Under the pieces are notes generated by a model. That model worked only from the letters and a program-made list of their open reading frames with translations, had not been told where the DNA came from and did no database searches. A stretch of 64,000 nucleotides of DNA. Source: Bacteroidota bacterium (lineage in GTDB: Bacteria; Bacteroidota; Ignavibacteria; Kryptoniales; JAKASW01). Shown here piece by piece: positions 20,986 through 41,044 of the stretch. The position numbers and the translations under genes are program-made. Where the stretch lies: assembly GCA_021789975.1 (NCBI GenBank), contig JAJYIT010000020.1, positions 1,048 through 65,047 of the forward strand, given 5' to 3'. Within the stretch, counting starts at the first letter, position 1; each line of letters opens with the position of its first letter.

Positions 20986-20988
20986 GCG

Positions 20989-22003: not shown

Positions 22004-23953
22004 ATGATGAAAATAATTGTTCCTCCTCTTGTTGTGTTGGTGATAGCTGTGAGCGGTTCCGGCTTGTCCGGGGCCGCTTGCGGTTCTGCGGCCGCGGCAA
22101 ACATTCCTGTCGATCCAGTGAAGTGGTCCAGGGAGTTGGCCGGAGCAGTGATTGCAAAGTACCCGACCTGTCTTCCGTGCGACACTACGATGACTTGGAA
22201 CTATGAACAAGGTGTGATTCTCAACGCGCTATGGAGAGTTTGGCGGGCAACCGGCGATAGTGCTTACTTCGATTACGTAAGGAGGAGCATCGACTACTAC
22301 CTGGCAGACGAGGGCTCGATCAAAACTTATGATGCCAATTTATTCAGGCTGGATGATGTTGCGCCGGGAAGAGCGGTGCTCGATCTCTACCGCTCGACAA
22401 GAGAGCCCAGGTATAAATTGGCAGCGGAAAGATTGAGGAAGCAACTGCTTGAGCAGCCGCGCAACAAGGATGGTGGTTTCTGGCATAAAAAGATTTACCC
22501 GCACCAGATGTGGCTCGATGGTCTTTACATGGCCGAGCCGTTCTATGCAATGTACGCGAAAACATTCGACGAGCCCTCGGTTTACCGCGATATCGCCAGG
22601 CAGTTTATCCTTATGGCGCGTCATGCGAGGGATCCAAAGACCGGCCTTTTCTATCATGGCTGGGATGAGTCCAGAACCCAGAAGTGGGCGAACCCCGCTA
22701 ACGGTAACTCTCCGACTTTCTGGGGAAGGGCGATGGGTTGGTATGTTATGGGGCTGGTGGACGTGCTCGACTATTTGCCGGAGGAGCAACCTGAGAGAAA
22801 TGAATTGGTCACGATATTTCGCAATCTCTCCTCGTCCATCCTGAGGTATCAAGATAAGAAAACTCATCTTTGGTGGCAGGTAGTTGATAGAGGCGACGCC
22901 GGCGGCAATTACCTAGAGAGTTCTGCCTCTGCGATGTTCGCATATGCTTTTGCGAAGGGTGTGAACAACGGATATCTTCCGGCGAGGTATCTCCGCGCAG
23001 CAAGGGCAGCCTTCGATTGGCTGGTACAGTATGAAATCAAGATGGTGAATGATTATCCCGTCTTGCTGAATACATGTGCGGGCACGGGGCTTGGTGGGAT
23101 GCCGTTTAGGGATGGTTCCTTCAACTATTACGTGACAGTTCCGAGACGAGATGACGATTTCAGAGGGCTCGGGCCGGCGATAATGTCGGCGCTGGAAATC
23201 GAAAAGGCTTCAAATGCCGACAAGGTGGTTTATCTCGACTCTTATCATAACAATGAATGGGTGCGGTCTAAGCAAGGCAAAGAGATTCGCTATCACTATA
23301 TTTGGGAGGACACGGCGAATTCCGGATATTCCCAGCTGGGCAAGATAATCCGCTCGCTCGGAGCCAGGATCAATGAGTCACGTGAAGTCATCAGCAGCCG
23401 AATCCTTGCTAAAGCGAGCGTGTACATGATAGTCGATCCCGATACTCGTCGGGAAACAAGACATCCTCACTATATCGACAACGATGAAATATCGGCGCTA
23501 GTTGGCTGGGTTGAGAAAGGCGGAGTCCTTGTAATCTTTGCCAACGATAGCGGGAATTGCGAGTTCGAACACCTCAACAAACTCGCCGGGCAATTCGGCA
23601 TCGGTTTCAATTACGATAGCCGCAACGACGTGGTTGGAAAGAATTATGAAATGGGAGCCTTCGCCAGCCTTCCGCAGAAACCGATGTTCGAAAATGTGAG
23701 GAAGATTTTTCTTAAAGAGATCTCCACACTAACCGTTCATAAACCGGCAAGGTCGGAACTCGTTAGAGACAAAGACGTCATAATGGCATCGGCAAATTAT
23801 GGGAAGGGCCTTGTGTTTGCGGTAGGTGATCCATGGTTCTATAATGAATATATTGATAATCGAAAACTCCCCGCGGGATTCGATAATTATGATGCTGCCC
23901 GTAGTCTGTTCGCCTGGTTGCTTAAGAAGGCGAAGCCGGTCACACATCGGTGA
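22004..23953 (+). CDS. GH105 unsaturated rhamnogalacturonyl hydrolase fused to a ~250-aa C-terminal domain (DUF4350 / class-I glutamine-amidotransferase-like fold suspected)
   Basis: 649 aa. The N-half has YteR/GH105-type features (WNYEQGVILNALW, GGFWHKKIYPHQMWLDGLYM, TFWGRAMGWYVMGL). The C-half (from about 23220) reads VVYLDSYHNNEW...VYMIVDPD...GGVLVIFANDSGN...GLVFAVGDPWFYNEY. Confidence 0.8.
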   Translation: MMKIIVPPLVVLVIAVSGSGLSGAACGSAAAANIPVDPVKWSRELAGAVIAKYPTCLPCDTTMTWNYEQGVILNALWRVWRATGDSAYFDYVRRSIDYYLADEGSIKTYDANLFRLDDVAPGRAVLDLYRSTREPRYKLAAERLRKQLLEQPRNKDGGFWHKKIYPHQMWLDGLYMAEPFYAMYAKTFDEPSVYRDIARQFILMARHARDPKTGLFYHGWDESRTQKWANPANGNSPTFWGRAMGWYVMGLVDVLDYLPEEQPERNELVTIFRNLSSSILRYQDKKTHLWWQVVDRGDAGGNYLESSASAMFAYAFAKGVNNGYLPARYLRAARAAFDWLVQYEIKMVNDYPVLLNTCAGTGLGGMPFRDGSFNYYVTVPRRDDDFRGLGPAIMSALEIEKASNADKVVYLDSYHNNEWVRSKQGKEIRYHYIWEDTANSGYSQLGKIIRSLGARINESREVISSRILAKASVYMIVDPDTRRETRHPHYIDNDEISALVGWVEKGGVLVIFANDSGNCEFEHLNKLAGQFGIGFNYDSRNDVVGKNYEMGAFASLPQKPMFENVRKIFLKEISTLTVHKPARSELVRDKDVIMASANYGKGLVFAVGDPWFYNEYIDNRKLPAGFDNYDAARSLFAWLLKKAKPVTHR

Positions 23954-24008: not shown

Positions 24009-25421
24009 ATGTCTGACAAGAGTTTAAACGATTACCGATTCTTTGACCCTCACGAGACTGTTAGAAAAACCGCTTTTGAGCTTTATGAAAGCGTAAGAAA
24101 TCTTCCAATCATCAGTCCTCATGGCCATGTTGATGCGAGAGTTCTGGCGGAGAACAAGCCGTTCCCTGACCCCGCGGAGCTGATCATAATACCTGATCAC
24201 TATATTTACAGAATGCTCTACTCTCAGGGAATTCCCCTGGAGTCGCTGGGAGTCCCGACGCAAGATGGTACAGTAGTCGAAAAGGATCACAGGAAAATAT
24301 GGCAGATTTTTGCAGATCACTTTTACCTCTTTGCGGGTACACCTACAGGCGTGTGGCTTTCGCATGAGGTTGCAGAGGTGTTCGGTATTGAAGAGAAACT
24401 GGAGTCGGCGAATGCGATGAGGGTTTACGACCGGATAGCTGAGAAGCTGCAGACGAAGGAATTCCTTCCGCGAGCCTTGTTCGAGAGATTCCGATTGGAG
24501 GTCCTCACGACTACCGATGCTCCGGGAGACACGCTAGAGTATCATAAGACCCTGCAGAAATCCGGCATGAAAGGCAGAGTGGTACCGTGTTTCAGACCGG
24601 ATCCGGTCGTGAATATCAAATCCACTGGATGGAGAAATGCGATCCGCGATCTCAGTAGAGAATCAGGGGTAGAAGTTAAGTCTTACAAGAAATATATCGC
24701 CGCACTCGAAAAGAGGCGTGAGTTTTTCAAATCGATGGGCGCAGTCTCGACGGATCAGGGTGTTGAGAGTCCTTATGCACATAAGCTGTCGCCGATAAGA
24801 GCCGAGGCAATCTTCAAGAACGCGCTGAGCGGGAAGGCGACCGAAAAAGAATCGCAAGAGTTCACTGCCAACATGTTGATGGAAATGGCGAGGATGAGTG
24901 TAGAGGACGGGTTGGTGATGCAGATCCATGCGGGGGCAATGCGGAACCACAACGTTGCCGTGTTCAAGAGGTTTGGTCTCGATAAGGGCGGAGATATTCC
25001 GGTTCAAACTGAATACACCAGGAATATGCACGAGCTATTGAACGCATTCGGCAATAATCCGGGTTTCACGGTTGTGGTTTTCACTCTGGATGAATCAACT
25101 TATTCACGTGAGCTTGCACCGCTGGCAGGACATTACCCCGCGATGAAACTGGGTGCATCGTGGTGGTTCCACGACAGCATCCAAGGAATGACGAGGTACC
25201 GGGAGAGAGTATTGGAAACCGCGGGGGTGTATAATACGGTTGGCTTTACTGACGACACCCGGGCTTTCCTTTCAATTCCTGCTCGACACGATCTCGCCAG
25301 GCGGATCGACTCAAACTATCTCGCAGGCCAGGTCGCACGTCATATTATCAATGATAAGGAAGCGGCTGTGATCATAAAGGACCTTGCTTACGGACTGGCC
25401 AAGAAATCGTACAAACTGTGA
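24009..25421 (+). CDS. uxaC: Uronate (glucuronate/galacturonate) isomerase
   Basis: 470 aa. NLPIISPHGHVDARVL, IIPDHYIYRMLYSQG, WWFHDS. Full-length UxaC architecture. Confidence 0.93.
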   Translation: MSDKSLNDYRFFDPHETVRKTAFELYESVRNLPIISPHGHVDARVLAENKPFPDPAELIIIPDHYIYRMLYSQGIPLESLGVPTQDGTVVEKDHRKIWQIFADHFYLFAGTPTGVWLSHEVAEVFGIEEKLESANAMRVYDRIAEKLQTKEFLPRALFERFRLEVLTTTDAPGDTLEYHKTLQKSGMKGRVVPCFRPDPVVNIKSTGWRNAIRDLSRESGVEVKSYKKYIAALEKRREFFKSMGAVSTDQGVESPYAHKLSPIRAEAIFKNALSGKATEKESQEFTANMLMEMARMSVEDGLVMQIHAGAMRNHNVAVFKRFGLDKGGDIPVQTEYTRNMHELLNAFGNNPGFTVVVFTLDESTYSRELAPLAGHYPAMKLGASWWFHDSIQGMTRYRERVLETAGVYNTVGFTDDTRAFLSIPARHDLARRIDSNYLAGQVARHIINDKEAAVIIKDLAYGLAKKSYKL

Positions 25422-25546: not shown

Positions 25547-26596
25547 GTGAATAGCAAGTCGCACATCACACTTAGCGATATCGCAAAGAAGTTGAACGTC
25601 TCGAAGGTTACTGTGTCCAAGGCTTTGCGGGGGCATCCGGATATTTCTAAAGAGACGACAAAGCGTGTTAAGAAGACGGCGGAGGAACTCGGCTATACTC
25701 CAAATTTCGCGGCCCGCAATCTATCATCCCGGAAGTCGAACACAATTGGGGTCGTCGTCCCGAAAATTGCGCATTTCTTTTTCAGCGCAATCATAGAGTC
25801 GGTCTATGACACCGCGTTTGTTAACAACTATGACATCGCTCTGACTGTTTCGCAAGAAAACGCCGAACGCGAGCGAAAGCACGTGGAGACTCTGCTCGCG
25901 ATGGGGGTCGACGGTATTGTCGTGTCGGTTTCTCAGCAAACTAAGGATAAAGCGATATTCGAAAAAGTGCTCGACAGAGGTGTGCCGCTTGTGTTCATGG
26001 ACCGTGTGATGGAAATTAAGGGAACGAGTCATGTCACGGTCGATGATCGCGGTGGTGCATTTAATGCCACCGAGCAGGCGATCAAAAACGGCTACAGGAG
26101 AATTGCCCACTTCGGCGGATATAAAGAGATTAATATCGGTAAGAACAGGTATGCAGGCTTTGCCGACGCCATGAAACAATATGGTGTACCTATTGACCCC
26201 GAGTTGGTCATTTACGGTGGATTCGGCGAAAGCTATGGCTACGAAGGATTCATGAAGCTATACCATAAAGGGAAACTCCCTGAATTTATTTTCACCGTCA
26301 CCTATCCGGTCGCCTTAGGAGTGTATGCCGCAGTTGCAGAGGTTGGCATGAAGATACCTGATGATATCGATATAATTTGCTTCGGTAACAGTAACATAAG
26401 CCGTTTCATAAAGCCGGAAATGTCTTTCGTGAATCAACAGACGGAGCTTATAGGAAAGACCGCCATCGAGTTGGTACTGGAGCATATCCGTGATTCCGAT
26501 GAGTTCAAACCGAAGCATGTCCAGATTCCGACCGAGCTCGTCCTCCGTGAGACCTGCGTAAAGAACAAGCGTGTCGACGCCCCAGTTAGTTTCTGA
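25547..26596 (+). CDS. LacI-family transcriptional regulator
   Basis: 349 aa, GTG start. HTH ITLSDIAKKLNVSKVTVSKALRGHPDISKETTKRVKKTAEELGYTPNFAARNLSS, followed by a PBP-type sugar-binding core. Confidence 0.92.
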   Translation: MNSKSHITLSDIAKKLNVSKVTVSKALRGHPDISKETTKRVKKTAEELGYTPNFAARNLSSRKSNTIGVVVPKIAHFFFSAIIESVYDTAFVNNYDIALTVSQENAERERKHVETLLAMGVDGIVVSVSQQTKDKAIFEKVLDRGVPLVFMDRVMEIKGTSHVTVDDRGGAFNATEQAIKNGYRRIAHFGGYKEINIGKNRYAGFADAMKQYGVPIDPELVIYGGFGESYGYEGFMKLYHKGKLPEFIFTVTYPVALGVYAAVAEVGMKIPDDIDIICFGNSNISRFIKPEMSFVNQQTELIGKTAIELVLEHIRDSDEFKPKHVQIPTELVLRETCVKNKRVDAPVSF

Positions 26597-28589: not shown

Positions 28590-28618
28590 TTGACATTTAC
28601 ACATGAGAAGGGTAAACT
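28590..28618 (+). promoter_or_regulatory. Sigma70-type promoter TTGACA-17-TAAACT for the T9SS-cargo gene block
   Basis: TTGACA at 28590..28595, an exact 17-nt spacer, and TAAACT at 28613..28618, about 185 nt upstream of the 28803 start. Confidence 0.5.
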
Positions 28619-28627
28619 CTTAAGCAG

Positions 28628-28664
28628 TTAAGTTATCGATTAAGTTAACGTTCACTTGAACGTT
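28628..28664. promoter_or_regulatory. Composite operator candidate: direct repeat TTAAGTTA-N4-TTAAGTTA abutting the palindrome AACGTTCA-CT-TGAACGTT
   Basis: An 8-bp direct repeat at 28628..28635 and 28640..28647. A perfect 8-bp-arm palindrome at 28647..28664 containing two AACGTT cores. Lies immediately downstream of the putative -10 box. Confidence 0.4.
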
Positions 28665-28802
28665 TATCTATCGCCTGTCTGCCCTGAGTAACATTCGACA
28701 AGGCTGTTTCCTGATGTTGTCCCTTGTCATCCTCGCTCGTTGTTAGAATTCTGAAAATAAGACCAAATATAGAAACCAGAACAAAACGAAGAAGGAGGAA
28801 TC

Positions 28803-31800
28803 ATGAAGAAAAGAACGACTGCCTTGGGGCTACTAGTTCTAATTACTTTTGCATCTGTTCCAGGAACCAGCTTGCTGTTCGCACAGACTACCGGCGAATA
28901 TCGATCTAATTCACCCGTCGCAACAGGTCCCTGGAACTGGAGCAACCCGGCCGCATGGCAAACATGGAATGGAACGGCGTGGGTGGCTGCGACTGTGGCT
29001 CCCACCGGCAATGAACCGAAGATAACGATCCAATCCACGGACTCGATCTACGCAGGCGCGGTGACAATCACCGATACTCTGGTGAATCAGGGAGAATTGG
29101 TTGCGGACACTAACTCTGCGGGCCAGTCGGTACTGGCTTTCGGCAGCGGCGGAGTGTACCAGCATGCAGAGAATGGCGGCTCTATTCCCTCAGCAACATG
29201 GAACACGGGATCGACCTGCTTGGTTACCGGCGCTACATCAAGTGCACCATCAAATGCGAATCAGAACTTCTACAATTTCGCATGGGATTGTGCGGGTCAA
29301 ACGACTGGTCTCAACGTAGCCTGGAACGGAAACACGATAGGTGGAAACCTTGTTGTCTCTGTTCCTTCGAGTCAACAGTTTCGTATGTCGAACAACAATG
29401 CCAACGGCGGGAATCCGATAACTATCAAGATACTCGGTAATATCGTTGTGAATAGTGGGAAACTCACCCCGACCGGGTCAGGCAGCGCTCAAACCTACAC
29501 GATCATCGACAGCGGAAATATCTATGTCAATTCTGGTGTATTGTACGTCAGCGGAGGAAGCGGCGGAGTTGTAACATGGTACTGCTACGGAGATACGTTC
29601 TCCACGGCAGACGGCACATCGTTGCAAACCTCCAACAGCTCCTCAAAGTGGATTTTTGCTCGCAGCGTTTCGCACGCCTTTACCACAACCGGCACCGTGA
29701 AATACACGGGCGGAATGACGTTTGAAGTTGACACAAACGCAACGCTTGACCTGGGTACAAGTGTCATTGCAGGAAGCTCGGCGAAGTTTGTGCTGGACTC
29801 AGCGGCAAATCTGGTTACTGCTCAGGCCGGCGGCCTCAACGGTAATCTCACAAATGCCGGAGGGAACACTTTCAGCCCTTACGCCAATTATGTCTTCAAC
29901 GGTACCGCGGCACAGGTGACCGGTGCTCTACTGCCGGCGGAAGTGAATGGCCTTACTGTCAACAACCCAGCTGGCCTGACATTGAGTGGATCCGTAAGTG
30001 TCGCTGATACTCTAAATCTTGTAAGCGGTCAACTGATCCTCGACACCAACCATGTCATGGCGACCACTCTCGTCGGCGGTTCATCCGCGAATTATCTAGT
30101 CACAGACAGCACCGGAAGCTATTTAGGAATCCCAAACGTCGGAACGACGAAGGTTCTTTTCCCGGTCGGAACGACTGCGGAAGGATATTCTCCGGTGTGG
30201 GTAACTAATACCGGAACGGCAGATACTTTCTCAGTTTCTGCCATGGCTGATTCTTCAGTCCCTGCAGGTGTCGGACGAGTTAACGTAAAGTGGAATGTCT
30301 TGGAGAGCCACCCTGGCGACGCAGTCTCTACACTGGCGTTCGGCTGGATGGCAGCAGCGGAGAATCCTGCATTCGCATCCGATCCTTCCGCATACGCGCA
30401 GATTTACAGCTTGAGTCCATACTACAAGCAAGTTGGTTTGGGCGCCTACAGCAGCCAATTTACAACTGAACCTTACACGCTTTCACGAATTGGAATTGCG
30501 ACGCTGGGAGAGTTCGGCGTCGGAAAATTTGTCCTGAACGTGACTCCGCAGATTGGAGACTTCGGCTCGGTTCAGAGCGGCCCGTGGAGTTCGCTCTCTG
30601 TTTGGAAACAATGGGACGGTAAAGGCTGGAACACGACACCTGTTGCAGTTCCTGACGGCGAAGTGAACGTGTTCATTAACAGAGGCGACACGGTTACGGT
30701 TGACGCGGTTGACTCAGTAGGCGGCAGTCTTCTCGTCGACGGCTATTTGAAAGATGTTGCGGGCCTCAAAGCAAGTGGCGCCAATGTGGTGTTTGATAGC
30801 GCCAGTGTTTACGAGCTCGCTCATAATGGCGGCGGCGTGGCAGGAATACCGACCGCGACGTGGAAAACCGGCTCCACTTGTCTGATTACCGGTGAGGCGG
30901 GGAAAATTTCCTCCACGACCGGTTTCAACGCAAACCAGGATTTTTATAATCTTGTGATTGATGCTGCTTTCTCTTCGAATAAAGACCTGGCGATGTATGA
31001 TAACACCATCAACGGCAATCTGGCTGTGAACAACACAGGAAGCGCCCGTGTTTATCTGACAAGTCCGGGCGCGGGGACGCCTAACACGATCACTATCAAG
31101 GGTAGCATTCTTTTGACAGCCGGCCAGTTCGCATCGAATGGATCGGGGAGTCCCGCAGACATAACCGTCAATAGCTACGGCAACATCACGGCAACCGGCG
31201 GCAACTTCAGCTTGTCAAGAGGATCCGGCCCAATTGTACTCTGGAATTTCTACGCGGATTCACTGACTCTATCGAATGCCACAACACAGGTATCCGGAAC
31301 GAACGATGTGCTGGTCTTTAAGAAACCCTTAGGCCCGTCCGGCAAGCCTCAATCCGGGTACCAGTATCTAACTTTCCAGAACGTTTCATACAGCGGCGGC
31401 GGACTTCCGATTGAAGTCGATACCGGTGCAACACTAGTTATGGACACGAGTTCTATCGGAGGAAGCGGAAACTTTACCGCCGATTCCGGCTCGACAATCA
31501 TGACGGGGAACTTCCTCGGTTTGAATGGAAGCATTACAACTTCAGGAACGGTAACTTTGAATCCTGGAGCCTCGTTTGTTTTCAACGGCACCGTTCATCA
31601 GATAACGGGCTCAATGCTTCCGGGCGCCGTAAAGAATCTCACGGTAGATAATTCAAAGGACGTATCTCTATCAAAGAGCACAGATGTCACCGGAACGTTG
31701 ACCATGACTAACGGCAACCTCGTTCTCGATACAAATAACGTCGTTGCTGCAGCGGTGTCCGGAGGTTCTCCGACCAGCTATGTCGCAACTGATTCCACCG

Positions 31801-32552
31801 GCAACTTGACGGTACCAAGTGTCGGCGCCACTCAGGTTGTCTTCCCTGTTGGTACAGATTATGGATACGCCCCTGCGTGGGTAACTCTCCCTACCGGCTC
31901 CGATCGCATTTCCGTTTCTGTGAAGCCGGACAGCACGGCGACTACGAACGGAATGGGCCGAGTAAACGTGAGATGGCAAATCCAGAAGACTAATTATACG
32001 ATCCCGTTCACGCTTCAACTCGGCTGGATGGCGTCGGAGGAGGATTCTGTGTTTGCTGAAAACCGTCCCGCCTATTCACAGATATACCTTGTTTCGAGCG
32101 ATACTGTTGTTGAGCAGGGTACCGGGAATTATACAACCCAGTCTACGACTCAACCCTACACAGTTTCTCGAAGCGGAATAACTGCTGAGTTTGGTACCGG
32201 ACCACAGGGAGTTCCTGCATTCGGTACTAATTTTGTCGTTGGTCATTTTACCCTCACCGGGATTGACGGGCCAGCCCAAGTTCCGGTCGAGTTCAAGCTG
32301 TATCAGAACTATCCGAATCCGTTTAACCCGACGACCAGGATACAGTTTACTGTCGCGAAAACCGGGATGGCCTCGCTGGAAGTCTACAACGTCCTGGGCC
32401 AACGCGTAGCGACTCTGTTCTCCGGAAATGCTTTACCCGGTCACTTGTATGCGGTTGACTTCAACGGGAGTGCGTACGCTTCAGGAGTCTACTTCAGCGT
32501 TCTGCAGAGCAGCAGCGAGCGCCAGGTAAAGAAGATCGTTTTAATGAAGTAG
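28803..32552 (+). CDS. Large secreted beta-helix-like protein of unknown function, internally duplicated, with T9SS C-terminal sorting domain
   Basis: 1249 aa. RBS GAAGGAGG. Signal peptide MKKRTTALGLLVLITFASVPGTSLLFAQ. Two homologous halves of about 580 aa. C-terminus LYQNYPNPFNPTTRIQF...VYNVLGQRVATLF...SGVYFSV...KKIVLMK is a T9SS type-A CTD pattern. Confidence 0.85.
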   Translation: MKKRTTALGLLVLITFASVPGTSLLFAQTTGEYRSNSPVATGPWNWSNPAAWQTWNGTAWVAATVAPTGNEPKITIQSTDSIYAGAVTITDTLVNQGELVADTNSAGQSVLAFGSGGVYQHAENGGSIPSATWNTGSTCLVTGATSSAPSNANQNFYNFAWDCAGQTTGLNVAWNGNTIGGNLVVSVPSSQQFRMSNNNANGGNPITIKILGNIVVNSGKLTPTGSGSAQTYTIIDSGNIYVNSGVLYVSGGSGGVVTWYCYGDTFSTADGTSLQTSNSSSKWIFARSVSHAFTTTGTVKYTGGMTFEVDTNATLDLGTSVIAGSSAKFVLDSAANLVTAQAGGLNGNLTNAGGNTFSPYANYVFNGTAAQVTGALLPAEVNGLTVNNPAGLTLSGSVSVADTLNLVSGQLILDTNHVMATTLVGGSSANYLVTDSTGSYLGIPNVGTTKVLFPVGTTAEGYSPVWVTNTGTADTFSVSAMADSSVPAGVGRVNVKWNVLESHPGDAVSTLAFGWMAAAENPAFASDPSAYAQIYSLSPYYKQVGLGAYSSQFTTEPYTLSRIGIATLGEFGVGKFVLNVTPQIGDFGSVQSGPWSSLSVWKQWDGKGWNTTPVAVPDGEVNVFINRGDTVTVDAVDSVGGSLLVDGYLKDVAGLKASGANVVFDSASVYELAHNGGGVAGIPTATWKTGSTCLITGEAGKISSTTGFNANQDFYNLVIDAAFSSNKDLAMYDNTINGNLAVNNTGSARVYLTSPGAGTPNTITIKGSILLTAGQFASNGSGSPADITVNSYGNITATGGNFSLSRGSGPIVLWNFYADSLTLSNATTQVSGTNDVLVFKKPLGPSGKPQSGYQYLTFQNVSYSGGGLPIEVDTGATLVMDTSSIGGSGNFTADSGSTIMTGNFLGLNGSITTSGTVTLNPGASFVFNGTVHQITGSMLPGAVKNLTVDNSKDVSLSKSTDVTGTLTMTNGNLVLDTNNVVAAAVSGGSPTSYVATDSTGNLTVPSVGATQVVFPVGTDYGYAPAWVTLPTGSDRISVSVKPDSTATTNGMGRVNVRWQIQKTNYTIPFTLQLGWMASEEDSVFAENRPAYSQIYLVSSDTVVEQGTGNYTTQSTTQPYTVSRSGITAEFGTGPQGVPAFGTNFVVGHFTLTGIDGPAQVPVEFKLYQNYPNPFNPTTRIQFTVAKTGMASLEVYNVLGQRVATLFSGNALPGHLYAVDFNGSAYASGVYFSVLQSSSERQVKKIVLMK
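28890..32295 (+). repeat. Intragenic tandem duplication (2 x ~580 aa) within the 1249-aa protein
   Basis: Half A (about 28890..30549) and half B (about 30552..32295) align end to end. Examples: TGPWNWSNPAAWQTWNGTAW vs SGPWSSLSVWKQWDGKGW; SIPSATWNTGSTCLVTG vs GIPTATWKTGSTCLITG; FEVDTNATLDLGTSVI vs IEVDTGATLVMDTSSI; RVNVKWNV vs RVNVRWQI. Confidence 0.85.
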
Positions 32553-32625: not shown

Positions 32626-34518
32626 ATGGTACAAACAAAATCTTTCGGCAGGCTTCTGTCCTCGGTTTCATCTGGGCGGGGTTCGTCAATCGCTGCGCTG
32701 AGTCTCGCGATTTGTTTCTTCCTCGGATACAATTCTGCGAGGGCACAGTACACAACTAATGGGACTGGTGGTGGATCATGGACTTCGGGTTCCACATGGC
32801 AGGGAGGCCAGGTGCCTCCGGCAGGAAGCGACGTGACGATAGCCTCAAATGACTCGGTCTGGACCAGCCTTTCTGCCCAAACCGGCTGCGGCGCCCTCGA
32901 CATCCAGTCCGGTGCTAAGCTCAATGTGCTCGGTCAAGGAATTGCAATGACGGGTGCATTCAGTGTAGGAGCAGGTGCAGTTTACATCAACAACACCGAC
33001 TCCGCTAAAGCATGGCCTGCAGGTGCGACAGGATACACAATTGACCCGACAAGCACTTTTATCCTCGGTCCTAGCGGCAATCCTACTTTGGGTTGGAGCC
33101 AGTCGGACTCCACTTTTGGAAATGTAATTATCGAGCCGAACAGCAATTCGAGTGGGCCGGCCTGCGGTGCCAATCTGACAATCCAGGGAAATCTGACGGT
33201 TGCCGTTGGGCAAGGCAATTACTTTAGAGGGATTGCTGTTAGCACAGCCGCCAGTGCCGGAGTTACCAGCTTCATTCACCACATCCTGGGGAACGTTACG
33301 GTTATCAGCGGCAACTGGGCTGCGGTCGACATGGGCGTTAGTGCTACTGTTCCACTGTACTGTACTTGGAACGTTGATGGGAATGTCACTGTCGGAGATC
33401 CCTCCACTGCGGCGCAAATAGCAAGGTTCTCTCCCATAACAAGCGAAGACGACATCGGTGCCCGCGGGACTTTCAACATAAAGGGCAATCTATCTTTCAT
33501 TAATGGTGGTCGCCTTGCTGCCGGGAGTAACTCAGGAAGCAACCAAAGTGCATCTCAGTATGCAACGGTGAATATTCAAGGCAATCTTTCCTTCGACAAT
33601 ACCGCCAAGTTTGGCGTGAACTCGATGGGTAATTTCGATATCAATTTCACAGGCACTAAGCCGCAGACTGTTACGCTCGGGACCAACGTCTCCTTCTCAC
33701 ATTCAGGTCCCCCGCAGTGTTCCGTATGGGACACAATTGCCGCGGGTGCCAACGTGACAATTACCGGCGGGCATTATTGGAGATCGGAGCAGACGCTGGC
33801 GCCTAACGGCACTGGAGCTTTTGTCGTCAACGGCACACTTAACATTGACGCACAAGACACAATCAAAGGAAGCCAGAAGTTCATTGTGAGTCCGGGCGGC
33901 ACGCTCGGCATCGGAGCCACTGACGGCATCACGGCTTCGACCGATGCAAACCCTTACACCGGCAACATTCAGGTCGACTCTGCCCGTGTCTTCAGCAGCG
34001 AAGCCAACTATGTGTACGACGGTACAAGCGCTCAGAAGACTGGAAGCGGGTTGCCGACGACCGTTAACGATCTGACGATTGAGGATACAGCCGGCGTAAT
34101 GCTAACTCAGGCAACAACGATAAACGGTACGCTCGCTTTGAAAGCCGGAGTGTTCGATAATACAATACCTTTCGCACTTGGGCCCGGCGGAAAAATTTCC
34201 TATGAAGGCGGCTCTTTACTGACTGGTGTGAAGAGAAAGGATGTGCTTGTGCCTCAACAATTTTACATGGACCAAAACTATCCGAACCCATTCAACCCGT
34301 CAACAACGATTGAATTCGGAGTGCCGAGCAGATCATTCGTGACGGTGAAGGTGTACAACGTCCTTGGGCAGAAAGTTGCCACATTGTTTAGCGGCGAGCA
34401 GAATGCCGGCGTATACACAGTAGACTTCAATGGAGCTAATTTCAGTTCCGGCGTCTATTTCTATCGAATCCAGGCAGGAAACTGGAGCAAGACGAAGCGT
34501 ATGGTAATGGTAAAATAA
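32626..34518 (+). CDS. Secreted beta-helix-like protein of unknown function with T9SS C-terminal sorting domain
   Basis: 630 aa. Signal-like IAALSLAICFFLGYNSARAQ. N-terminal TNGTGGGSWTSGSTWQGGQVPPAGSDVTIA motif. G/N/T-rich repeats. CTD DQNYPNPFNPSTTIEF...VYNVLGQKVATLF...SGVYFYRIQAGNWSKTKRMVMVK. Confidence 0.8.
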   Translation: MVQTKSFGRLLSSVSSGRGSSIAALSLAICFFLGYNSARAQYTTNGTGGGSWTSGSTWQGGQVPPAGSDVTIASNDSVWTSLSAQTGCGALDIQSGAKLNVLGQGIAMTGAFSVGAGAVYINNTDSAKAWPAGATGYTIDPTSTFILGPSGNPTLGWSQSDSTFGNVIIEPNSNSSGPACGANLTIQGNLTVAVGQGNYFRGIAVSTAASAGVTSFIHHILGNVTVISGNWAAVDMGVSATVPLYCTWNVDGNVTVGDPSTAAQIARFSPITSEDDIGARGTFNIKGNLSFINGGRLAAGSNSGSNQSASQYATVNIQGNLSFDNTAKFGVNSMGNFDINFTGTKPQTVTLGTNVSFSHSGPPQCSVWDTIAAGANVTITGGHYWRSEQTLAPNGTGAFVVNGTLNIDAQDTIKGSQKFIVSPGGTLGIGATDGITASTDANPYTGNIQVDSARVFSSEANYVYDGTSAQKTGSGLPTTVNDLTIEDTAGVMLTQATTINGTLALKAGVFDNTIPFALGPGGKISYEGGSLLTGVKRKDVLVPQQFYMDQNYPNPFNPSTTIEFGVPSRSFVTVKVYNVLGQKVATLFSGEQNAGVYTVDFNGANFSSGVYFYRIQAGNWSKTKRMVMVK

Positions 34519-34608: not shown

Positions 34609-37095
34609 ATGTTAAAATACGTCGGTTTTTTTTTACTGCTTAGTTTGACTCCAGTTTACCTATTTGCACAGACCGCGGGATTTGTCGGCGACGGTGTTAC
34701 AGATAATACTACGGCAATTCAGGCGGCGATCGACAGTTGCAGCAATGCGGGCGGTGGTGTAGTTGAATTTGCAAAGGGCATTTTTCTCACCGGTCCTATA
34801 ACACTTGAGAGCAATGTCACCCTGAGGATTGACAGCTCGGCCACGCTACTTGGGAGTTCAAATATGAAGGCGTACTACCCGGTGGGTTACGACACGTCTT
34901 ATCCGGTGCCGAGCAAGCTTCAGCCTCTGATCACATCTAACAGAGCCGACAGTTTGACGATCACAGGAGGCGGGACGATTGATGGCAATGGCCAGGAATG
35001 GTGGACCGCGTATGAGAACGGGACTATTTCAACCAGGCCCAGGCTGATTCAGCTAAGTCATTCTCAATATATTTCAATAGAGAATGTAACCCTGCAAAAC
35101 TCACCGCAATTCCATGTATCACTTCAGTATTGTTGGTATGTGAACATTCGCAACGTGAATATCTTCGCACCACCCAGCTCTCCAAACACCGACGGCATCG
35201 ATCCTGCAACGAGTCATTTTGTTTACATAACGGGTTGCCACATCAATACCGGCGACGACAACATTGCAATAAAGTCCGGTAATTATGATTCGTCTAATCC
35301 GAATGCAGGATCGTCGAACATTTTCATTTGGAACAACACCCTTATACACGGCCACGGGATCTCGATCGGAAGCGAGACAAATGGCGGTGTGGACAGCATG
35401 TTTGTCTGGGACTGTACATTCGACAGCACAGACAACGGTCTGAGAATAAAGTCTTATCGTGGAGCAGGCGGAAACGTCAGGCACGTGAGTTATCGCAACA
35501 TTACGATGAATCACGTCAAGCACCCGATTTGGTTCACTGAATACTATCCGAATATTCCTTCGCAATCGGATCCAGCGCAGAAGATTACTGCTGTGACTCC
35601 ATACTTCCACGACGTTACAATAGACAGCCTTGTGTCAGACTCAGGCGGTACTTCATATCCCGGATCTGCCATCGTAGGATTGCCTGAAACGCCGATGAGA
35701 GATATCGTTCTCAAGAATGTCAACATCGGGGGTAAGTACGGCGTTGAAGTGAGGAATGCGAGTGTTTATACCAGCAACACTTCCGTAAGTGTCACAAGTG
35801 GCTCGCAGATAATATATGAAATCAGGGGATCGTTCAGTCCCGCGATTTTTACGAACGGTACGGGTGGAGGGAACTGGGATTCGCCGTCGACCTGGGAAGG
35901 CGGTGCGGTTCCGGACTCCACGAAATACGCAGTCATCCTATGCGGAGACTCGGTAACCGTTGGAGCCGGGCAGTCGACGAAATGCGGCAGCCTTGCCATA
36001 TTTGCAGACGCGGTATTGAATGACGCGGCTCCGCTATCGGTTCCCGATACACTGACAATCGGTGACACGGCTTCCTACTACAATGCCTGCCCGGGCAGCC
36101 CTTCCTTCCCGCGTGCATCGGTCTACGGCATCAGCAATTTGAGCAATTACATTCACACCGCGAGCGCCGATAGCATTCTCGGAGGGCCGGGATATGATTC
36201 AACTTTCGGCAACCTGACTATCGAGCAGGATACCACCGTAGCCAGTTCAAACCTCATAGTCAACGGAAATCTAAATCTTGTCGGTGACAAGCTTTTTATC
36301 GGGCACAATAATATCATTGCGGCAGATGTCAACGGAGGATCCTCCACCAGCTATGTTGTCACCGATAGCGGCGGCGCCCTAAGAATTCCCGGTGTCGGGG
36401 CAACGCAAACGATTTTCCCGGTGGGTACTTCACTTGGATATTCTCCGGTTTGGATCGCGAGTTCGACTTCGCCGGATACTTTCACAGTTTCAGCGGAGAC
36501 GGACACCGATTTGCTTGTCGAAAACAGCGGACGCGTGAATACAAAATGGAATATTTCGAAATCTACGCCGGGAAGCGTCAGTTGCACCTTGAAGTTCGGA
36601 TGGGTGGCTGAAGCTGAAGACGCTGGATTTGCCGCCGACCGCTCCGGCGATGCAAAGATTTTCAATATTAACGATTCCATTGCCACCGCGGAGGCCGGAA
36701 CGGGAAGCTACACCACTCAACTTACATCTGAGCCGTACACAGTCTCGCGCGGAGGGATAACCGCACTCGGTTCTTTCGGTGTCGGGAATTTCACTGTAAC
36801 ATCGGTCGAAGGTCATGGTGCCACGAACCCGACGAGCTTCGGGCTCTACCAGAATTATCCGAACCCGTTCAACCCGTCCACGGTTATCGATTATCAGGTC
36901 GCCTCTTCAGCCCGGGTCACCCTGCGCGTCTTCGATGTCCTTGGCAGGGAAGTAGAGTCACTCGTTGATCAGCGAGAGACTCCGGGTAACTATTCCGTCA
37001 GTTTCGATGGAAGCCGTCTTCCGTCCGGTGTCTATTTTTACAGACTCACTGCGGGAAGCTTCTCCGCCGTGAGGAAGATGATAATTATAAGGTAG
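34609..37095 (+). CDS. GH28 polygalacturonase fused to an uncharacterised module and a T9SS C-terminal sorting domain
   Basis: 828 aa. Signal peptide present. GH28 catalytic motifs NTDGIDP, GDDNIAIKSG, GHGISIGSE, LRIKSYRGAGG. These are followed by TNGTGGGNWDSPSTWEGGAVP, the ~174-aa shared module (36271..36792), and the CTD LYQNYPNPFNPSTVIDY...VFDVLGREVESL...SGVYFYRLTAGSFSAVRKMIIIR. Confidence 0.9.
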   Translation: MLKYVGFFLLLSLTPVYLFAQTAGFVGDGVTDNTTAIQAAIDSCSNAGGGVVEFAKGIFLTGPITLESNVTLRIDSSATLLGSSNMKAYYPVGYDTSYPVPSKLQPLITSNRADSLTITGGGTIDGNGQEWWTAYENGTISTRPRLIQLSHSQYISIENVTLQNSPQFHVSLQYCWYVNIRNVNIFAPPSSPNTDGIDPATSHFVYITGCHINTGDDNIAIKSGNYDSSNPNAGSSNIFIWNNTLIHGHGISIGSETNGGVDSMFVWDCTFDSTDNGLRIKSYRGAGGNVRHVSYRNITMNHVKHPIWFTEYYPNIPSQSDPAQKITAVTPYFHDVTIDSLVSDSGGTSYPGSAIVGLPETPMRDIVLKNVNIGGKYGVEVRNASVYTSNTSVSVTSGSQIIYEIRGSFSPAIFTNGTGGGNWDSPSTWEGGAVPDSTKYAVILCGDSVTVGAGQSTKCGSLAIFADAVLNDAAPLSVPDTLTIGDTASYYNACPGSPSFPRASVYGISNLSNYIHTASADSILGGPGYDSTFGNLTIEQDTTVASSNLIVNGNLNLVGDKLFIGHNNIIAADVNGGSSTSYVVTDSGGALRIPGVGATQTIFPVGTSLGYSPVWIASSTSPDTFTVSAETDTDLLVENSGRVNTKWNISKSTPGSVSCTLKFGWVAEAEDAGFAADRSGDAKIFNINDSIATAEAGTGSYTTQLTSEPYTVSRGGITALGSFGVGNFTVTSVEGHGATNPTSFGLYQNYPNPFNPSTVIDYQVASSARVTLRVFDVLGREVESLVDQRETPGNYSVSFDGSRLPSGVYFYRLTAGSFSAVRKMIIIR

Positions 37096-38029: not shown

Positions 38030-41000
38030 ATGAGTGAGAAATCTACGATACTATTTGCGGGTCCAATAGCGCTTCTGCTTGCCGTCTCGGTGCCTGCATT
38101 TGCTCAGACGTCCGCGACGGCTAACTGGCCGCTGACGAGCGCGGCGTCAACCATGACCGTATCAGGAAACATATCAGCATCGCCGGAAGTGATTTTAGGA
38201 TTGACCCCCGCGTACGAGATTCCGGGAGCCGGGACAAGCAACGCCGTCCAGAAACTTAAACCCGATGCGACAACAAGCGGCAGCGGAGGCACAGGTTCGT
38301 GGCCAGCGGACTCTGCCGCTAATGGCGGAAGGTACGTGCAGTTCAGTATTGGGCCGCAAACCAACTTCAATTTGACAGTTGATTCTATTTCAGTGTTGAT
38401 CGGAGCCAAAGGTGTTCACAACCTCAATGCTTCCGTCTATTATTCCACGAGCAGTACCTTCATCGATTCGGTAAAGATCATGGAGCGGGACAGCCTCATA
38501 TCCAACGCCGTCTCGGACACGACGCTCGACAGTCTCAAAATTCCGGTGACCAACGGTCAAACGCTTTACATCAGAATATACCCGTGGGCGAAAGAAGGAA
38601 TAGCAAGCAACACGAAGTATTTGTATGTTGGCAACCTCACGATATATGGTTCCGCTCAGCCGCTGCCGGTTCCGACTGCCGCGGTCTGGCCTGATTCAAC
38701 GGACCTGAATCCCGTTACTACCGGCCTGATTGTCGCGAAGCAGCAAAGCTTCAGCAGTACTTTGTACAGCTACGGTTTCGGGCTTCTCGGTACGACACAA
38801 GGAGACGAGATATTGACGACTCCTGCAAAGAGCACATGGCCCGCGGAAAGTGCACCCGACTCAGCTTACTATGTCCAGTATGCCGCAACGGTTGCTCCGG
38901 GTGGAACACTCTTTGTCGATTCGCTATCACTTCAAATGGGCGCGAAGTATTCTAAGAACCTGAGGGCAGCAGTCTACTACTCCAATGACTCTACATTCTC
39001 AACAAGAACGGTGCTCGTTCAGGATACTTCGCTATCCGAGAGTCAGTTCACAACTTTCGGAAGCATCATACCAACCGATACCGTAGGCACAGGACAGGTA
39101 TTTTATTTGAGAGTCTACCCCTATGATACAAAAGCGGAAGGATATGCGAAGATTGTGTTCCTGGCGAACGTCGTCATCGCAGGTTATACCACGGGAGTCA
39201 GCGCTTCTTTGCCGAGCATTACCACCACAGTCCCTTCTTACATCTCGACAACCTTCGCATACAGCGGTGGTCTTATATCATCAGATGGAGGCGGACTCGT
39301 GACCGGAAGAGGGGTATGCTGGAGCGTTCAACAGACTCCGACAATTGCAGACAGCACGACACAAGATGGTACAGGTACCGGTCCATTTACGAGTAACATT
39401 ACTAATCTCACGCCTGGCATCACTTATTATGTCGCGGCGTATGCGACTAACATTGCCGGAACTGCTTATGGTGTGGTGGACAGTTTTACGACACTCTCTT
39501 CAGTTGTGCCTCCCTCTGTAACGACCGCTGGAGTCACGCAGGTTCTTGCGAAGACTGCACAGGGTGGGGGCAGCGTTACTTCATGGGGAGGCGACTCAGT
39601 GAAAGTACGAGGCGTGTGCTACAGCGTCCAGTCTTCACCGACAGTTGCCGATAGTGTGACTGTCGATGGAAGCGGGTTAGGCACTTTCGTAAGCGGCCTT
39701 GCTAACCTGACGCCTGCTACGACTTATTATGTCCGCGCGTATGCGACAAACAGCGCTGGGACCGGTTACGGGTCGGTAGATACTTTAACTACTCAACCGA
39801 CGGCGCCTACTGTTATCAAAGTTGTCGCTCAGGATGGCAGCGGTGATTACAAAACTATCCAGGCGGCTTTCGATGCCGTGCCGGATTATTATACCGGCGA
39901 ATGGATCATCTACGTCAAGAACGGTAGTTACTATGAAAAAGATACTCTGGCAGCTTCTAAGACCAATGTTGTCCTCGAAGGCGAGAGCCGCGATAGTACA
40001 ATACTGACTTATGACGATTACTCAGGGAGGGTAGTTGGCAATACAACTATCGGGACGTCCAGCTCATTCACACTCGATGTTGCAGCCAGCGACTTCACAG
40101 CCGAGAACATTACCATCCAGAATACGTCACAGGCAGCTCAGGCTGTAGCCGTGATGAACAACGGAGATCGTCAGGTCTTCTATCACTGCAATATCCTCGG
40201 TTATCAGGATACTTACTACAACTGGGGAGGAAGCGGCGTCGGCCGAATTTATAATAAGGATTGTCTGATCCAGGGGTCGGTAGACTTCATGTTCGGAAGA
40301 GACATAGTTGTAACCGACAGCTGCATCATTCATGAGATCCGCAATGGTGGTACGCTGACTGCCGCAAACACAAACGCGACGACCAACTTTGGGTACGTTT
40401 TCCTTAACGACTCGATCCTGGTTGACTCTGTCGGGTTTGACGGGAATCCGATCACTTCGTTTTATCTTGGGAGACCGTGGCAGGCTGCGCCGAGAGTAGC
40501 TTTCATACATTGCTACGAACCGGCAGCTCTCAATACTGCCGGCTGGCTTGCATGGAATGTCACTCCTGCCCTCTACGCCGAGTATAATTGCTATGGACCA
40601 GGTTCGGACACTACCGGACGGGTTAGCTTCTCGACCCAGTTGGATTCTGCCGAGGCCGCGAATTACACACTCGCAAATATCTTTTCAAAGACTTCCGATC
40701 CCGGACTGGCTTATGACTGGATGCCTGTTATACCTCCTTATCTGATGCCGACAGGAATAAAGGAAAAGGATCCGCTGCCGCAAAATTTCGAGCTCTATCA
40801 AAATTATCCTAATCCTTTCAACCCGACCACGACTATTGAGTACTCCATACCGAGAAATCTTAAGGTGACTGTTGAAATCTATGATGTCCTGGGTCAGCGC
40901 GTGGCAACATTGTCCAATCAATATGAATCCGCAGGATATCACTCGGTCGTTTTCAACGCCGATAAGCTGAGCAGCGGAGTGTATTTCTACCAGGTGAGAG

Positions 41001-41044
41001 CTGGCAACAACGTTGCGGTAAAAAAGCTAATGCTAATCAAGTAG
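38030..41044 (+). CDS. Multidomain secreted pectinesterase: 2 x ~190-aa unknown domain + 2 x ~95-aa FN3-like domain + CE8 catalytic domain + T9SS CTD
   Basis: 1004 aa. RBS GAAGGAGG. CE8 motifs (from about 39800): VVAQDGSGDYKTIQAAF, AQAVAVMNNGDR, GYQDTYY, GSVDFMFG, LGRPWQ. CTD LYQNYPNPFNPTTTIEY...IYDVLGQRVATL...SGVYFYQVRAGNNVAVKKLMLIK. Confidence 0.9.
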   Translation: MSEKSTILFAGPIALLLAVSVPAFAQTSATANWPLTSAASTMTVSGNISASPEVILGLTPAYEIPGAGTSNAVQKLKPDATTSGSGGTGSWPADSAANGGRYVQFSIGPQTNFNLTVDSISVLIGAKGVHNLNASVYYSTSSTFIDSVKIMERDSLISNAVSDTTLDSLKIPVTNGQTLYIRIYPWAKEGIASNTKYLYVGNLTIYGSAQPLPVPTAAVWPDSTDLNPVTTGLIVAKQQSFSSTLYSYGFGLLGTTQGDEILTTPAKSTWPAESAPDSAYYVQYAATVAPGGTLFVDSLSLQMGAKYSKNLRAAVYYSNDSTFSTRTVLVQDTSLSESQFTTFGSIIPTDTVGTGQVFYLRVYPYDTKAEGYAKIVFLANVVIAGYTTGVSASLPSITTTVPSYISTTFAYSGGLISSDGGGLVTGRGVCWSVQQTPTIADSTTQDGTGTGPFTSNITNLTPGITYYVAAYATNIAGTAYGVVDSFTTLSSVVPPSVTTAGVTQVLAKTAQGGGSVTSWGGDSVKVRGVCYSVQSSPTVADSVTVDGSGLGTFVSGLANLTPATTYYVRAYATNSAGTGYGSVDTLTTQPTAPTVIKVVAQDGSGDYKTIQAAFDAVPDYYTGEWIIYVKNGSYYEKDTLAASKTNVVLEGESRDSTILTYDDYSGRVVGNTTIGTSSSFTLDVAASDFTAENITIQNTSQAAQAVAVMNNGDRQVFYHCNILGYQDTYYNWGGSGVGRIYNKDCLIQGSVDFMFGRDIVVTDSCIIHEIRNGGTLTAANTNATTNFGYVFLNDSILVDSVGFDGNPITSFYLGRPWQAAPRVAFIHCYEPAALNTAGWLAWNVTPALYAEYNCYGPGSDTTGRVSFSTQLDSAEAANYTLANIFSKTSDPGLAYDWMPVIPPYLMPTGIKEKDPLPQNFELYQNYPNPFNPTTTIEYSIPRNLKVTVEIYDVLGQRVATLSNQYESAGYHSVVFNADKLSSGVYFYQVRAGNNVAVKKLMLIK

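Follow-up and report, generated by a model that had tools for sequence, protein, structure and literature searches.

It is well known that secreted multi-modular CAZymes can carry non-catalytic appendages; in the FCB group the CBM-type accessory modules of T9SS CAZymes lie beside catalytic domains and a type-A C-terminal sorting domain (CTD), are shuffled among GH, CE and PL enzymes in variable copy number, and have no catalytic residues. SusE/SusF-type SGBPs are enzyme-free, multi-domain and surface-exposed lipoproteins of Ig-like or CBM-like domains, encoded next to SusC/SusD in substrate-specific loci with a TonB-dependent transporter, and tandem homologous binding units are common among them. 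The tapirins of Caldicellulosiruptor are non-catalytic beta-helix surface proteins encoded next to degradative machinery, and they bind plant polysaccharide as cellulose adhesins. Pectinases are typically right-handed beta-helices. The pectin locus described here lies in a 64-kb stretch of DNA (the window) from a Kryptoniota/Ignavibacteria-like bacterium and holds secreted CE8, GH28 and esterase enzymes, a GH88/105 and a TonB-dependent transporter. It also encodes a 1,249-residue protein in which a two-part module that matches no described family was duplicated head to tail long ago.

The gene is a complete ORF of 1249 aa (28803..32552, plus strand, as are all features of this gene and of its two neighbours given below) with the order SP-A1-B1-A2-B2-CTD, hereafter the ABAB protein. 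Public assemblies contain an identical protein (P0001), besides which at least 10 full-length orthologues were found; a scan of species-representative genomes gave one full-length relative (L002), most of its matches being to the generic T9SS tail pattern QNYPNPFN. The start at 28803 is supported by a Shine-Dalgarno motif, GGAGG, read from the sequence at 28794..28798, 5 nt before the ATG. By inspection, the N-terminus runs from MKKRTT through a hydrophobic core to LFA/QT, so that a Sec/SPI signal peptide of aa 1-27 (28803..28883) is predicted to be cut at the slash with Gln at +1, and this Q28 is invariant in 11 orthologues. Since the signal peptide has no Cys, the protein is not a lipoprotein. 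The A/Q cleavage agrees with the Bacteroidetes Q-rule (PMC5837995). Module A1 (aa 31-390; 28893..29972), designated alpha type, combines a W-rich G8-like cap with a beta-solenoid body, and B1 (aa 391-582; 29973..30548) comprises the last solenoid turn and a beta-sandwich of ~165 aa. They are followed by A2 (aa 583-952; 30549..31658), which is of beta type with a weak G8 match at aa 612-649, and by B2 (aa 953-1150; 31659..32252). The type-A T9SS CTD (aa 1170-1246; 32310..32540) scores 32.9 bits with PF18962 (cut-off 27) and 35.1 bits with TIGR04183 (cut-off 23), which, together with the pectin context, bears out the original prediction that the protein is exported or displayed at the surface and belongs to a degradative locus. 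The only T9SS machinery gene in the window is of the PorV/PorQ family (20989-21999; NF033709, 157 bits; cut-off 90), the core PorK/L/M/N and Sov genes lying outside the 64 kb.

Internal tandem duplication is in itself ordinary. The original prediction had described the span 28890-32295 (aa 30-1165), which is the duplicated part, as an old end-to-end duplication of a ~580-aa unit with both copies maintained. A self-BLAST of the whole protein returned the identity match only, and the halves were therefore split for comparison: BLASTP aligned aa 39-574 with aa 590-1133 at 40% identity over 557 columns (E 5.7e-103), and the Smith-Waterman score was 928 against 79 +/- 13 in 200 shuffles (z=65), with z=41 for A alone and z=45 for B alone. 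A 12-residue dot-plot placed nearly all matches at offsets 549-563, on a single long diagonal with small indel shifts, and the similarity is end to end, as every 50-column window of the alignment is 28-57% identical. The duplicated units are aa 31-582 (552 aa) and aa 583-1150 (568 aa); duplication at this scale stands, but the ~580-aa stretch is not itself the evolutionary unit, being a cassette of two modules, A and B, each of which is also found independently and in other numbers in other proteins. An old age is supported by the halves no longer matching at the nucleotide level (blastn, word 7, E<=1e-3) and by the separation of the alpha and beta A types into two clades that keep their positions in most orthologues. 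Maintenance of both copies is likewise borne out, every module being 39-78% identical to its counterpart across 10 orthologues.

The novelty lies in the modules themselves, A of ~370 aa and B of ~190 aa, which are confidently foldable (pLDDT 92-94) although searches of the PDB, Pfam and NCBIfam gave no significant relative for either; B is very widespread, with 4,440 representative clusters at 50% identity. AF2 gave the whole A-B unit a pLDDT of 91.9 and a pTM of 0.88, with pLDDT 96-98 across the A/B junction, which argues for a rigid architecture; the body of A was modelled as an all-beta solenoid with short strands every ~25 residues, and B reached pLDDT 94.0 and pTM 0.90. Sequence and profile searches of PDB chains returned chance matches only (nanobodies, YdhK, UmuD; E >= 0.037). 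With Foldseek, the whole unit matched PDB entries at E >= 0.07 and BFVD viral models at E >= 1e-3, with TM <= 0.25, and the weak neighbours were mostly right-handed beta-helices, including autotransporter passengers, Ag43 and tailspikes. The best Foldseek matches of B were MYDGF-, GAIN- and ZU5-type sandwiches (E >= 0.02), with no CBMs among them, and at TM 0.35-0.45 a kinship of B with these was too weak to build on. Neither A nor B matched any CBM family in Pfam. The G8 profile (PF10162) gave 16.7 bits on the 1249-aa protein against a cut-off of 22.9, covering profile positions 5-41 of 124, and matched weakly in 12 of 26 homologous units. No description of A or B, or of the receptor and PorV-paralogue arrangement considered below, was found in the literature.

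Two neighbouring genes had been predicted to encode further paralogues of the same unit, and each does so in part. The first (32626..34518) encodes a partner of 630 aa with a signal peptide, a G8-like cap scoring 30.1 bits (above the 22.9 threshold, over profile positions 1-43 of 124), a diverged A body and a T9SS CTD; its kinship extends to part of module A (profile E 2.6e-24), and B is missing. The second is a GH28-T9SS fusion (ORF 34609-37095). Its C-terminal half contains a copy of module B (aa 535-732; 36211..36804) that shares 45-48% of its residues with B1 and B2 (profile E 1e-70); of A it has a weak cap and the final turns, most of the body being absent. ABAB orthologues are without exception followed by an orthologue of the partner (627-786 aa), which lies directly 3' of the ABAB gene in L001, L082, L083 and L084, the gene pair being kept down to 39% identity.

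Upstream of the ABAB gene, a 327-bp gap contains a sigma-70-like site, TTGACA-17 nt-TAAACT (28590..28618, plus strand, 10/12 matches), which is a candidate only, because 11 such sites occur in the region against 8.3 expected, and which is plausible as a promoter because it falls in the only long intergenic gap, directly before a perfect palindrome. This palindrome, AACGTTCA-ct-TGAACGTT (28647..28664), is unique in the window and would be an operator for a LacI-family protein; a LacI-family regulator gene is at 25547-26596. Variants such as ATCGTTCACTTGAACGAT stand just upstream of the CE8 gene in L001 (7364), L082 (7280) and L084 (7075), where that gene heads a CE8-esterase-ABAB operon. Co-regulation is thus likely, from the promoter-like site and from the palindrome behind it, which recurs at the head of the operon in three orthologous loci. 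Rfam gave no matches in the window.

It is proposed, with moderate confidence, that the ABAB protein is a LacI-controlled, non-catalytic, surface-displayed pectin-binding protein; we infer the binding itself, the ligand, the retention at the surface and the regulation. Sec would export the protein, with cleavage before Gln28, and its type-A sorting domain would then direct it through the outer membrane, to stay at the cell surface or, possibly, to be released. In the mature part, each of the two rigid A-B units would consist of a beta-solenoid, capped by a W-rich G8-like segment, and a beta-sandwich behind it, and the protein would serve to capture pectin, as a surface glycan-binding protein or an adhesin. 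The polysaccharide may be bound by a conserved, uncharged aromatic and polar patch of A (in A1, Y119, P129, W133, S137, N151, Q154 and F156, with corresponding residues in A2). The divergence of the A types would provide two binding sites, possibly for different pectin substructures, and pectin would be held at the surface near the TonB-dependent transporter and the CE8, GH28 and esterase enzymes secreted from the same locus. This reading is favoured by a signal peptide together with a CTD above curated cut-offs, and by the behaviour of an accessory module, since A-B or B is appended to enzymes of unrelated specificity and varies widely in copy number. The lack of any catalytic signature, the rigid architecture of the models and the likely co-regulation speak for it as well. 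The link to pectin comes from the enzyme-free A/B proteins, which lie in pectin loci in 7/7 genomes examined, and from the conserved ABAB-partner pair. Against it, neither module resembles any known carbohydrate-binding module, and A1 has few basic residues (K+R 2.5%), although a protein that binds polyanionic homogalacturonan would be expected to have more, except where its ligand carries methyl esters or is a neutral side chain.

Because xylan-active enzymes and a phosphatase carry the cassette too, the family as a whole agrees equally well with a structural role that does not depend on the substrate. A and B could be an inert stalk or spacer that projects T9SS cargo off the outer membrane, and the ABAB protein a surface or fibril component without a specific ligand, an explanation that is unlikely for this protein and yet carries some weight. 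The A-B cassette or B alone is fused to GH10, GH43+CBM32, CE8, GH28 and PL9, also to GH30 and a purple acid phosphatase, partner enzymes with unrelated substrates, and T9SS cargo shows such arrangements as A x4, A-A-B, B alone, and as many as 6-8 B repeats in giant proteins, the longest of which has 5,935 aa. Furthermore, the unit is modelled as a rigid, rod-like solenoid, whose weak structural neighbours may point the same way, and in many carriers B is near the CTD, the last B ending <=130 aa from the C-terminus in 45 of the 85 proteins with a CTD motif. A definition of B as a mere pre-CTD domain was rejected, as B1 is internal, P0045 and P0047 have an N-terminal B, and the giants have internal repeats. 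However, an enzyme-free protein would have nothing to display, such forms keep to pectin loci with a conserved partner gene, and the conserved Trp/Tyr/Phe/Gln/Asn/Ser cluster, located in the loop-rich N-terminal third of A, exceeds the needs of a spacer.

The presence of a GH88/105, which needs unsaturated substrates, in a 64-kb window with no recognised polysaccharide lyase leaves room for an unrecognised one, and A might then found a new beta-helix family of pectin lyases or hydrolases, supplying the activity that the locus seems to lack; this is improbable. Its solenoid would suit the typical pectinase fold, and L086 combines GH88, KduI and KduD with an A-A-B protein and no recognised PL; still, the lyase may simply lie beyond the window, as other orthologous loci carry PL1, PL2 or PL9. 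The absence of a catalytic pectate-lyase or hydrolase motif, first noted by eye, was confirmed and extended to families with the PL, GH and CE models of Pfam and with NCBIfam, neither the 1249-aa protein nor 26 homologous units matching any enzyme family. A cryptic relationship of A to GH28, PL or CE8 was rejected by hhalign, the probability of homology to a catalytic beta-helix being 0.09 for the GH28 profile, 0.12 for PL1 and 0.25 for a CE8 protein; a PL9 protein aligned with A-B (probability 100, E 1e-58) only through its own appended cassette, outside the catalytic part. Over 65 A modules, the conserved positions are Trp, Tyr, Phe, Gln, Asn, Ser, Gly and Pro only, with W46, W52, P67, W133, S137, Q154, G238, G344 and Q371 at 100% and no acidic or basic column at >=85%, and such conservation of uncharged positions argues against a hidden lyase or hydrolase. 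The beta-type A does keep charged positions within the orthologue group (D629 and K841 invariant; R806, D819 and D894 nearly so), but these are not conserved across A modules generally, and in that group none of the charged residues of the alpha-type copy is invariant. Moreover, the cassette is appended to bona fide pectinases, including the PL9 lyase, as well as to xylanases, and it is found in 2-4 tandem copies.

Equally improbable is a scaffold, in which A and B would mediate protein-protein assembly (homotypic A-A or B-B, or to the PorV/PorQ paralogue of the locus) and the ABAB protein would organise B-bearing enzymes (GH28-B, PL9-A-B, CE8 fusions) into a surface complex near the TonB-dependent transporter: the modules are common to the enzyme-free protein and the locus enzymes, a SusC-like receptor 10 kb upstream of the ABAB gene is followed by a 739-aa protein and the PorV/PorQ-family protein in a trio conserved in L082 and L086, and a beta-helix with a C-terminal sandwich is, by analogy, the architecture of oligomeric tailspikes, but the models are of monomers only, oligomerisation or interaction finds no support, and not all locus enzymes could dock, since the window's CE8-T9SS enzyme has neither A nor B.

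If pectin binding by the ABAB protein is confirmed, new carbohydrate-binding families would be defined by A or B, annotation would improve for the thousands of proteins in environmental FCB-group genomes now labelled 'hypothetical T9SS', and it would become clear how bacteria that lack SusD-type systems capture pectin; if A is catalytic instead, it would found a new family of pectinases whose active site is non-canonical. A far-reaching extension, and a quite speculative one, is a SusD-less, T9SS-based form of polysaccharide utilisation in these Kryptoniota/Ignavibacteria-like bacteria, in which CTD enzymes and enzyme-free A/B proteins would be kept at the cell surface and arranged around a SusC-like transporter with its own PorV/PorQ paralogue. 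A would then be the first carbohydrate-binding family built as a beta-solenoid, and B, a beta-sandwich with a new fold, would serve as a general building block of T9SS cargo.

Compared with known systems, A and B share with the CBM-type accessory modules of T9SS CAZymes their placement, shuffling, variable copy number and lack of catalytic residues; they differ in having no Pfam or NCBIfam CBM match and no significant match to a solved fold, in the size of A, a ~370-aa solenoid far larger than typical CBMs, and in forming, in the ABAB protein, a whole protein without an enzyme. The pectate-lyase-fold enzymes (GH28, PL1, PL9, CE8) resemble the ABAB protein as predicted all-beta solenoids in a pectin-locus context, several of them T9SS-secreted, whereas A has no HMM or profile-profile similarity to them and no conserved Asp/Glu/Lys/Arg constellation. 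In the G8 and beta-helix ectodomains (PF10162; PKHD1, CEMIP/KIAA1199, TMEM2), a W-rich start of the form W..W..G..P..V.I leads into a beta-helix, as it would in A, and several homologues pass the G8 threshold as the 630-aa neighbour does; however, only profile positions 1-43 of 124 are covered, the 1249-aa protein stays below threshold, and no G8-containing structure was among the Foldseek matches. The tapirins differ in phylum and secretion route, show no sequence similarity, and were reached by Foldseek at chance level (6n2b, rank 34, E 1.3), but they are, as the ABAB protein would be, non-catalytic beta-helix surface proteins beside degradative machinery, with a polysaccharide binding of the kind proposed here. 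Like SusE/SusF-type SGBPs, the ABAB protein is an enzyme-free, multi-domain and probably surface-exposed protein of tandem homologous units in a substrate-specific degradative locus with a TonB-dependent transporter; unlike them, and in a locus without detectable SusD, it joins an SPI signal peptide free of a lipobox Cys to a beta-solenoid and a T9SS CTD.

A single long open reading frame occupies the region (28803-32552, + strand), with a GGAGG Shine-Dalgarno sequence 5 nt upstream of its ATG, and encodes a product of 1249 aa, here called the ABAB protein; the span first singled out, 28890-32295, corresponds to aa 30-1165, its repeated portion. When the two halves were aligned, aa 39-574 and aa 590-1133 were 40% identical (E 5.7e-103), with a half-against-half Smith-Waterman score of 928 versus 79 +/- 13 when the second half was shuffled 200 times (z = 65), and sub-regions of the halves were each significant alone (z = 41 and z = 45). 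Identity is 28-57% in each 50-column block, so that the similarity spans the halves end to end. Furthermore, a windowed dot-plot of the protein against itself places almost all matches at offsets 549-563, and the end-to-end tandem duplication of the original prediction is upheld, long diagonal included. No nucleotide-level similarity was left when the halves were compared as DNA.

The protein starts with a classical SPI signal peptide whose end reads LFA/Q, and Q28 is unchanged in all 11 orthologues. The A/Q is present in 3/3 T9SS proteins of this stretch and matches the 'Q-rule' for Bacteroidetes SPI substrates (PMC5837995). A type-A T9SS C-terminal sorting domain (CTD) lies at aa 1170-1246, scoring over the curated threshold in Pfam as well as in NCBIfam, and between these signals are unit 1 (aa 31-582) and unit 2 (aa 583-1150). 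Mapping of unit profiles onto 108 homologues splits the unit into a cassette of two modules: A, of ~370 aa, with a W-rich cap followed by a G/N/S/T-rich body, and B, of ~190 aa, a domain of its own. Among homologous proteins in public assemblies, four A modules without B occur in P0017-19, A-A-B in P0025, P0027 and P0032, and a lone A-B in P0016, while in others A-B is joined to catalytic domains. The duplicated ~580-aa unit is therefore real but is not a single evolutionary module, A and B being separable across the 108 homologues.

In module trees, two types of A, alpha and beta, each form a clade, with A1 of the window being alpha and A2 beta. The order alpha then beta is kept by most orthologues (P0002, P0003, P0006, P0007, P0008, P0009), whereas both A copies are beta-type in P0004, P0005 and P0011, and the alpha type comes second in P0012. 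This places the duplication before the split of these genomes, with modules swapped afterwards. Across ten orthologues, all four modules keep 39-78% identity to their counterparts, and purifying selection therefore acts on both copies; the duplication is thus as old, and its copies as well maintained, as had been supposed. The statement that two downstream neighbours are further paralogues is half right for each. The 630-aa protein (32626-34518) shares with A a G8-like cap, a body that has diverged, and the 'LP.TVN.LTI...GV.L' turns that close the module (unit profile E 2.6e-24, positions 145-375), but sequence and profile comparison found module B absent from it; its longer orthologues, of 783-786 aa, have a diverged B-like domain in addition. 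In the GH28 fusion (34609-37095), B is 45-48% identical and the profile match (E 1e-70, aa 509-729) includes the last A turns, but the cap motif is weak and most of the A body is missing.

The duplication as such is ordinary, and what deserves attention is a pair of undescribed modules that are confidently folded in prediction, widespread and tightly tied to pectin loci. An exhaustive profile search, with clusters counted at 50% identity, retrieved B from 4,440 representative clusters at E <= 1e-3 and from 2,532 at E <= 1e-10. A T9SS tail is present in 35/41 mid-sized B members, the last B lies <=130 aa from the C-terminus in 45/85 proteins with a CTD motif, and A is also present in 59 among the 145 B members listed. 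From the cluster numbers, the tails and the proximity to the CTD, module B is an unannotated building block in general use among T9SS cargo proteins. The largest carriers reach 5,935 aa; the search output shows as many as 6-8 matched stretches in such giants, or up to 6 copies per protein when longer matches alone are counted, which suggests that B also serves as a repeat in surface proteins of very large size. Giants of 2,000-5,900 aa with repeated B include P0140, P0144, P0146 and P0228.

Unit 1 was modelled in AlphaFold2 from 26 homologous units, with a pLDDT of 91.9, a pTM of 0.88 and the A/B junction at pLDDT 96-98. In this model A is a beta-solenoid of short strands alone, recurring about every 25 residues, and B is a beta-sandwich; modelled by itself (40 sequences), B reached pLDDT 94.0 and pTM 0.90. 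Foldseek returned no significant neighbour for the whole unit or for B. The best PDB matches of the whole unit were generic beta-helix proteins (E >= 0.07, TM <= 0.2), namely phage tailspikes, Ag43, autotransporter passengers and a tapirin, with a similar picture in a viral model library (E >= 1e-3); for B, MYDGF came first (E 0.02, TM 0.35-0.45) and sandwiches of the GAIN and ZU5 types next. Against PDB chains, sequence searches and profile searches alike yielded chance-level matches only, and Pfam and NCBIfam recognised nothing in A or B apart from a partial G8 in the A cap (profile positions 1-43 of 124), which scores 16.7 bits in the ABAB protein, under the 22.9 threshold, and above threshold in the 630-aa partner and some homologues.

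The window is a locus for the utilisation of pectin and uronates. It encodes CE8 (10589), GH43 (11735), a 649-aa GH88/105 with a C-terminal DUF4350 fusion (22004-23953), UxaC (24009-25421), a LacI-family regulator (25547-26596), KDPG aldolase and KDG kinase, and then the ABAB protein, its 630-aa partner and the GH28-B-CTD fusion, a GDSL esterase, CE8-CTD, a BD-FAE esterase, two further GH28 proteins, an MFS transporter and the tagaturonate epimerase UxaE (46776-48338). In the orthologous locus L083 the DUF4350-like region is joined to a GDSL esterase instead of GH88/105. In the CE8-T9SS pectinesterase (38030-41044, 1004 aa), the N-terminal ~597 aa have no family assignment, with weak fn3/Ig-like matches alone near aa 557-594, and are unrelated to A and B. 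UxaC, UxaE, KDG kinase and KDPG aldolase together indicate, at the level of gene content, galacturonate catabolism by the epimerase route rather than the UxaB/UxaA route. The substrates of GH88/105 are unsaturated lyase products, and neither a recognised polysaccharide lyase nor KduI or KduD was found within the 64-kb window; lyases of the loci compared are PL9 (L001, L084), PL1 (L083) and PL2 (L085), and that of this locus may lie outside the window or be unrecognised. In place of SusC/SusD stands a conserved trio (15431-21999) of a 1112-aa SusC-like TonB-dependent receptor (15431), a 739-aa protein without Pfam family whose tail resembles a T9SS CTD below threshold, and a PorV/PorQ-family protein of 336 aa (NF033709, 157 bits, cut-off 90), also found in L082 and L086; in the literature searched, no PorV paralogue linked to a transporter is described. 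At the margins, a xylose/arabinose-type sugar gene cluster (aldose epimerase, FGGY kinase, isomerase-like) has upstream of it a 1504-aa hybrid sensor kinase (312-4826) that combines about eight PAS domains with HisKA, HATPase and receiver domains. Two neighbouring ORFs (48512-50644, - strand), 480 aa and 221 aa long and neither with a Pfam family at E <= 1e-3, separate the pectin locus from glutamate synthase genes. For the housekeeping protein GltD, the nearest named relatives come from a Candidatus Kryptoniota MAG and a 'Bacteroidetes' MAG (84%), and Ignavibacteriaceae follow at ~75%.

Orthologues of the ABAB gene in four other genomes (39-60% identity) lie within pectin loci in 4/4 cases, each with a partner of 627-786 aa directly 3'. 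The enzyme-free A x4, A-A-B and P0021 genes lie in pectin loci as well, with CE8, PL2, GH88, KduI/KduD and GH28 as neighbours, so that enzyme-free A/B proteins are in pectin loci in 7/7 loci inspected. Upstream of the ABAB gene (28590-28664), a promoter-like TTGACA-17-TAAACT precedes a perfect palindrome (8+8), AACGTTCActTGAACGTT, of the form AACGTTCA-nn-TGAACGTT. Close variants occur 5' of the CE8 gene heading the CE8-esterase-ABAB operon (L001:7364, L082:7280, L084:7075), and the palindrome is thereby suggested as a candidate operator for the LacI-family regulator.

The reading we favour, with about even confidence, is that of a non-catalytic, T9SS-exported, probably surface-retained, pectin-binding protein. 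Across 65 full-length A modules, W46, W52, P67, W133, S137, Q154, G238, G344 and Q371 are 100% conserved, and Y119, F156 and W259 are additional aromatic columns. This uncharged aromatic and polar cluster looks like, and may be, a carbohydrate-binding surface. An inert stalk, for which a regular predicted solenoid would be suited, is unlikely beside such a cluster. That A founds a new catalytic family is quite improbable. Catalysis by known pectate lyases depends on a base, Arg or Lys, together with several carboxylates that bind Ca2+, and GH28 requires three Asp. As originally noted for pectate-lyase and hydrolase motifs, no PL, GH or CE family HMM (Pfam, NCBIfam) is matched, and no acidic or basic column reaches 85% among the 65 modules. 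Profile-profile probabilities against beta-helix enzymes of these loci are 0.09 (GH28 profile), 0.12 (PL1) and 0.25 (CE8 protein). In fact, a PL9 (Pel9A-like) T9SS pectate lyase of 1114 aa (L084:19029-22373) contains a full A-B cassette at aa 414-1019 and aligns (hhalign probability 100, E 1e-58) solely through it, after the catalytic helix, so that here the cassette is appended to a true lyase; it is also attached to GH10, GH43+CBM32, CE8, GH28, GH30 and a purple acid phosphatase. Judged from these sequences, the ABAB protein is probably not an enzyme. A scaffold or docking role, possibly via the PorV/PorQ paralogue of the locus, is likewise quite improbable.

As a pectin-binding protein, its two diverged solenoid units would cooperate with the secreted enzymes (CE8, GH28 and esterases), and it would act together with the TonB-dependent transporter of the same regulon. 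Although the ABAB protein is not a member of the surface glycan-binding proteins of Bacteroidota PULs and stands outside the tapirin family, it would be like both in its proposed function.
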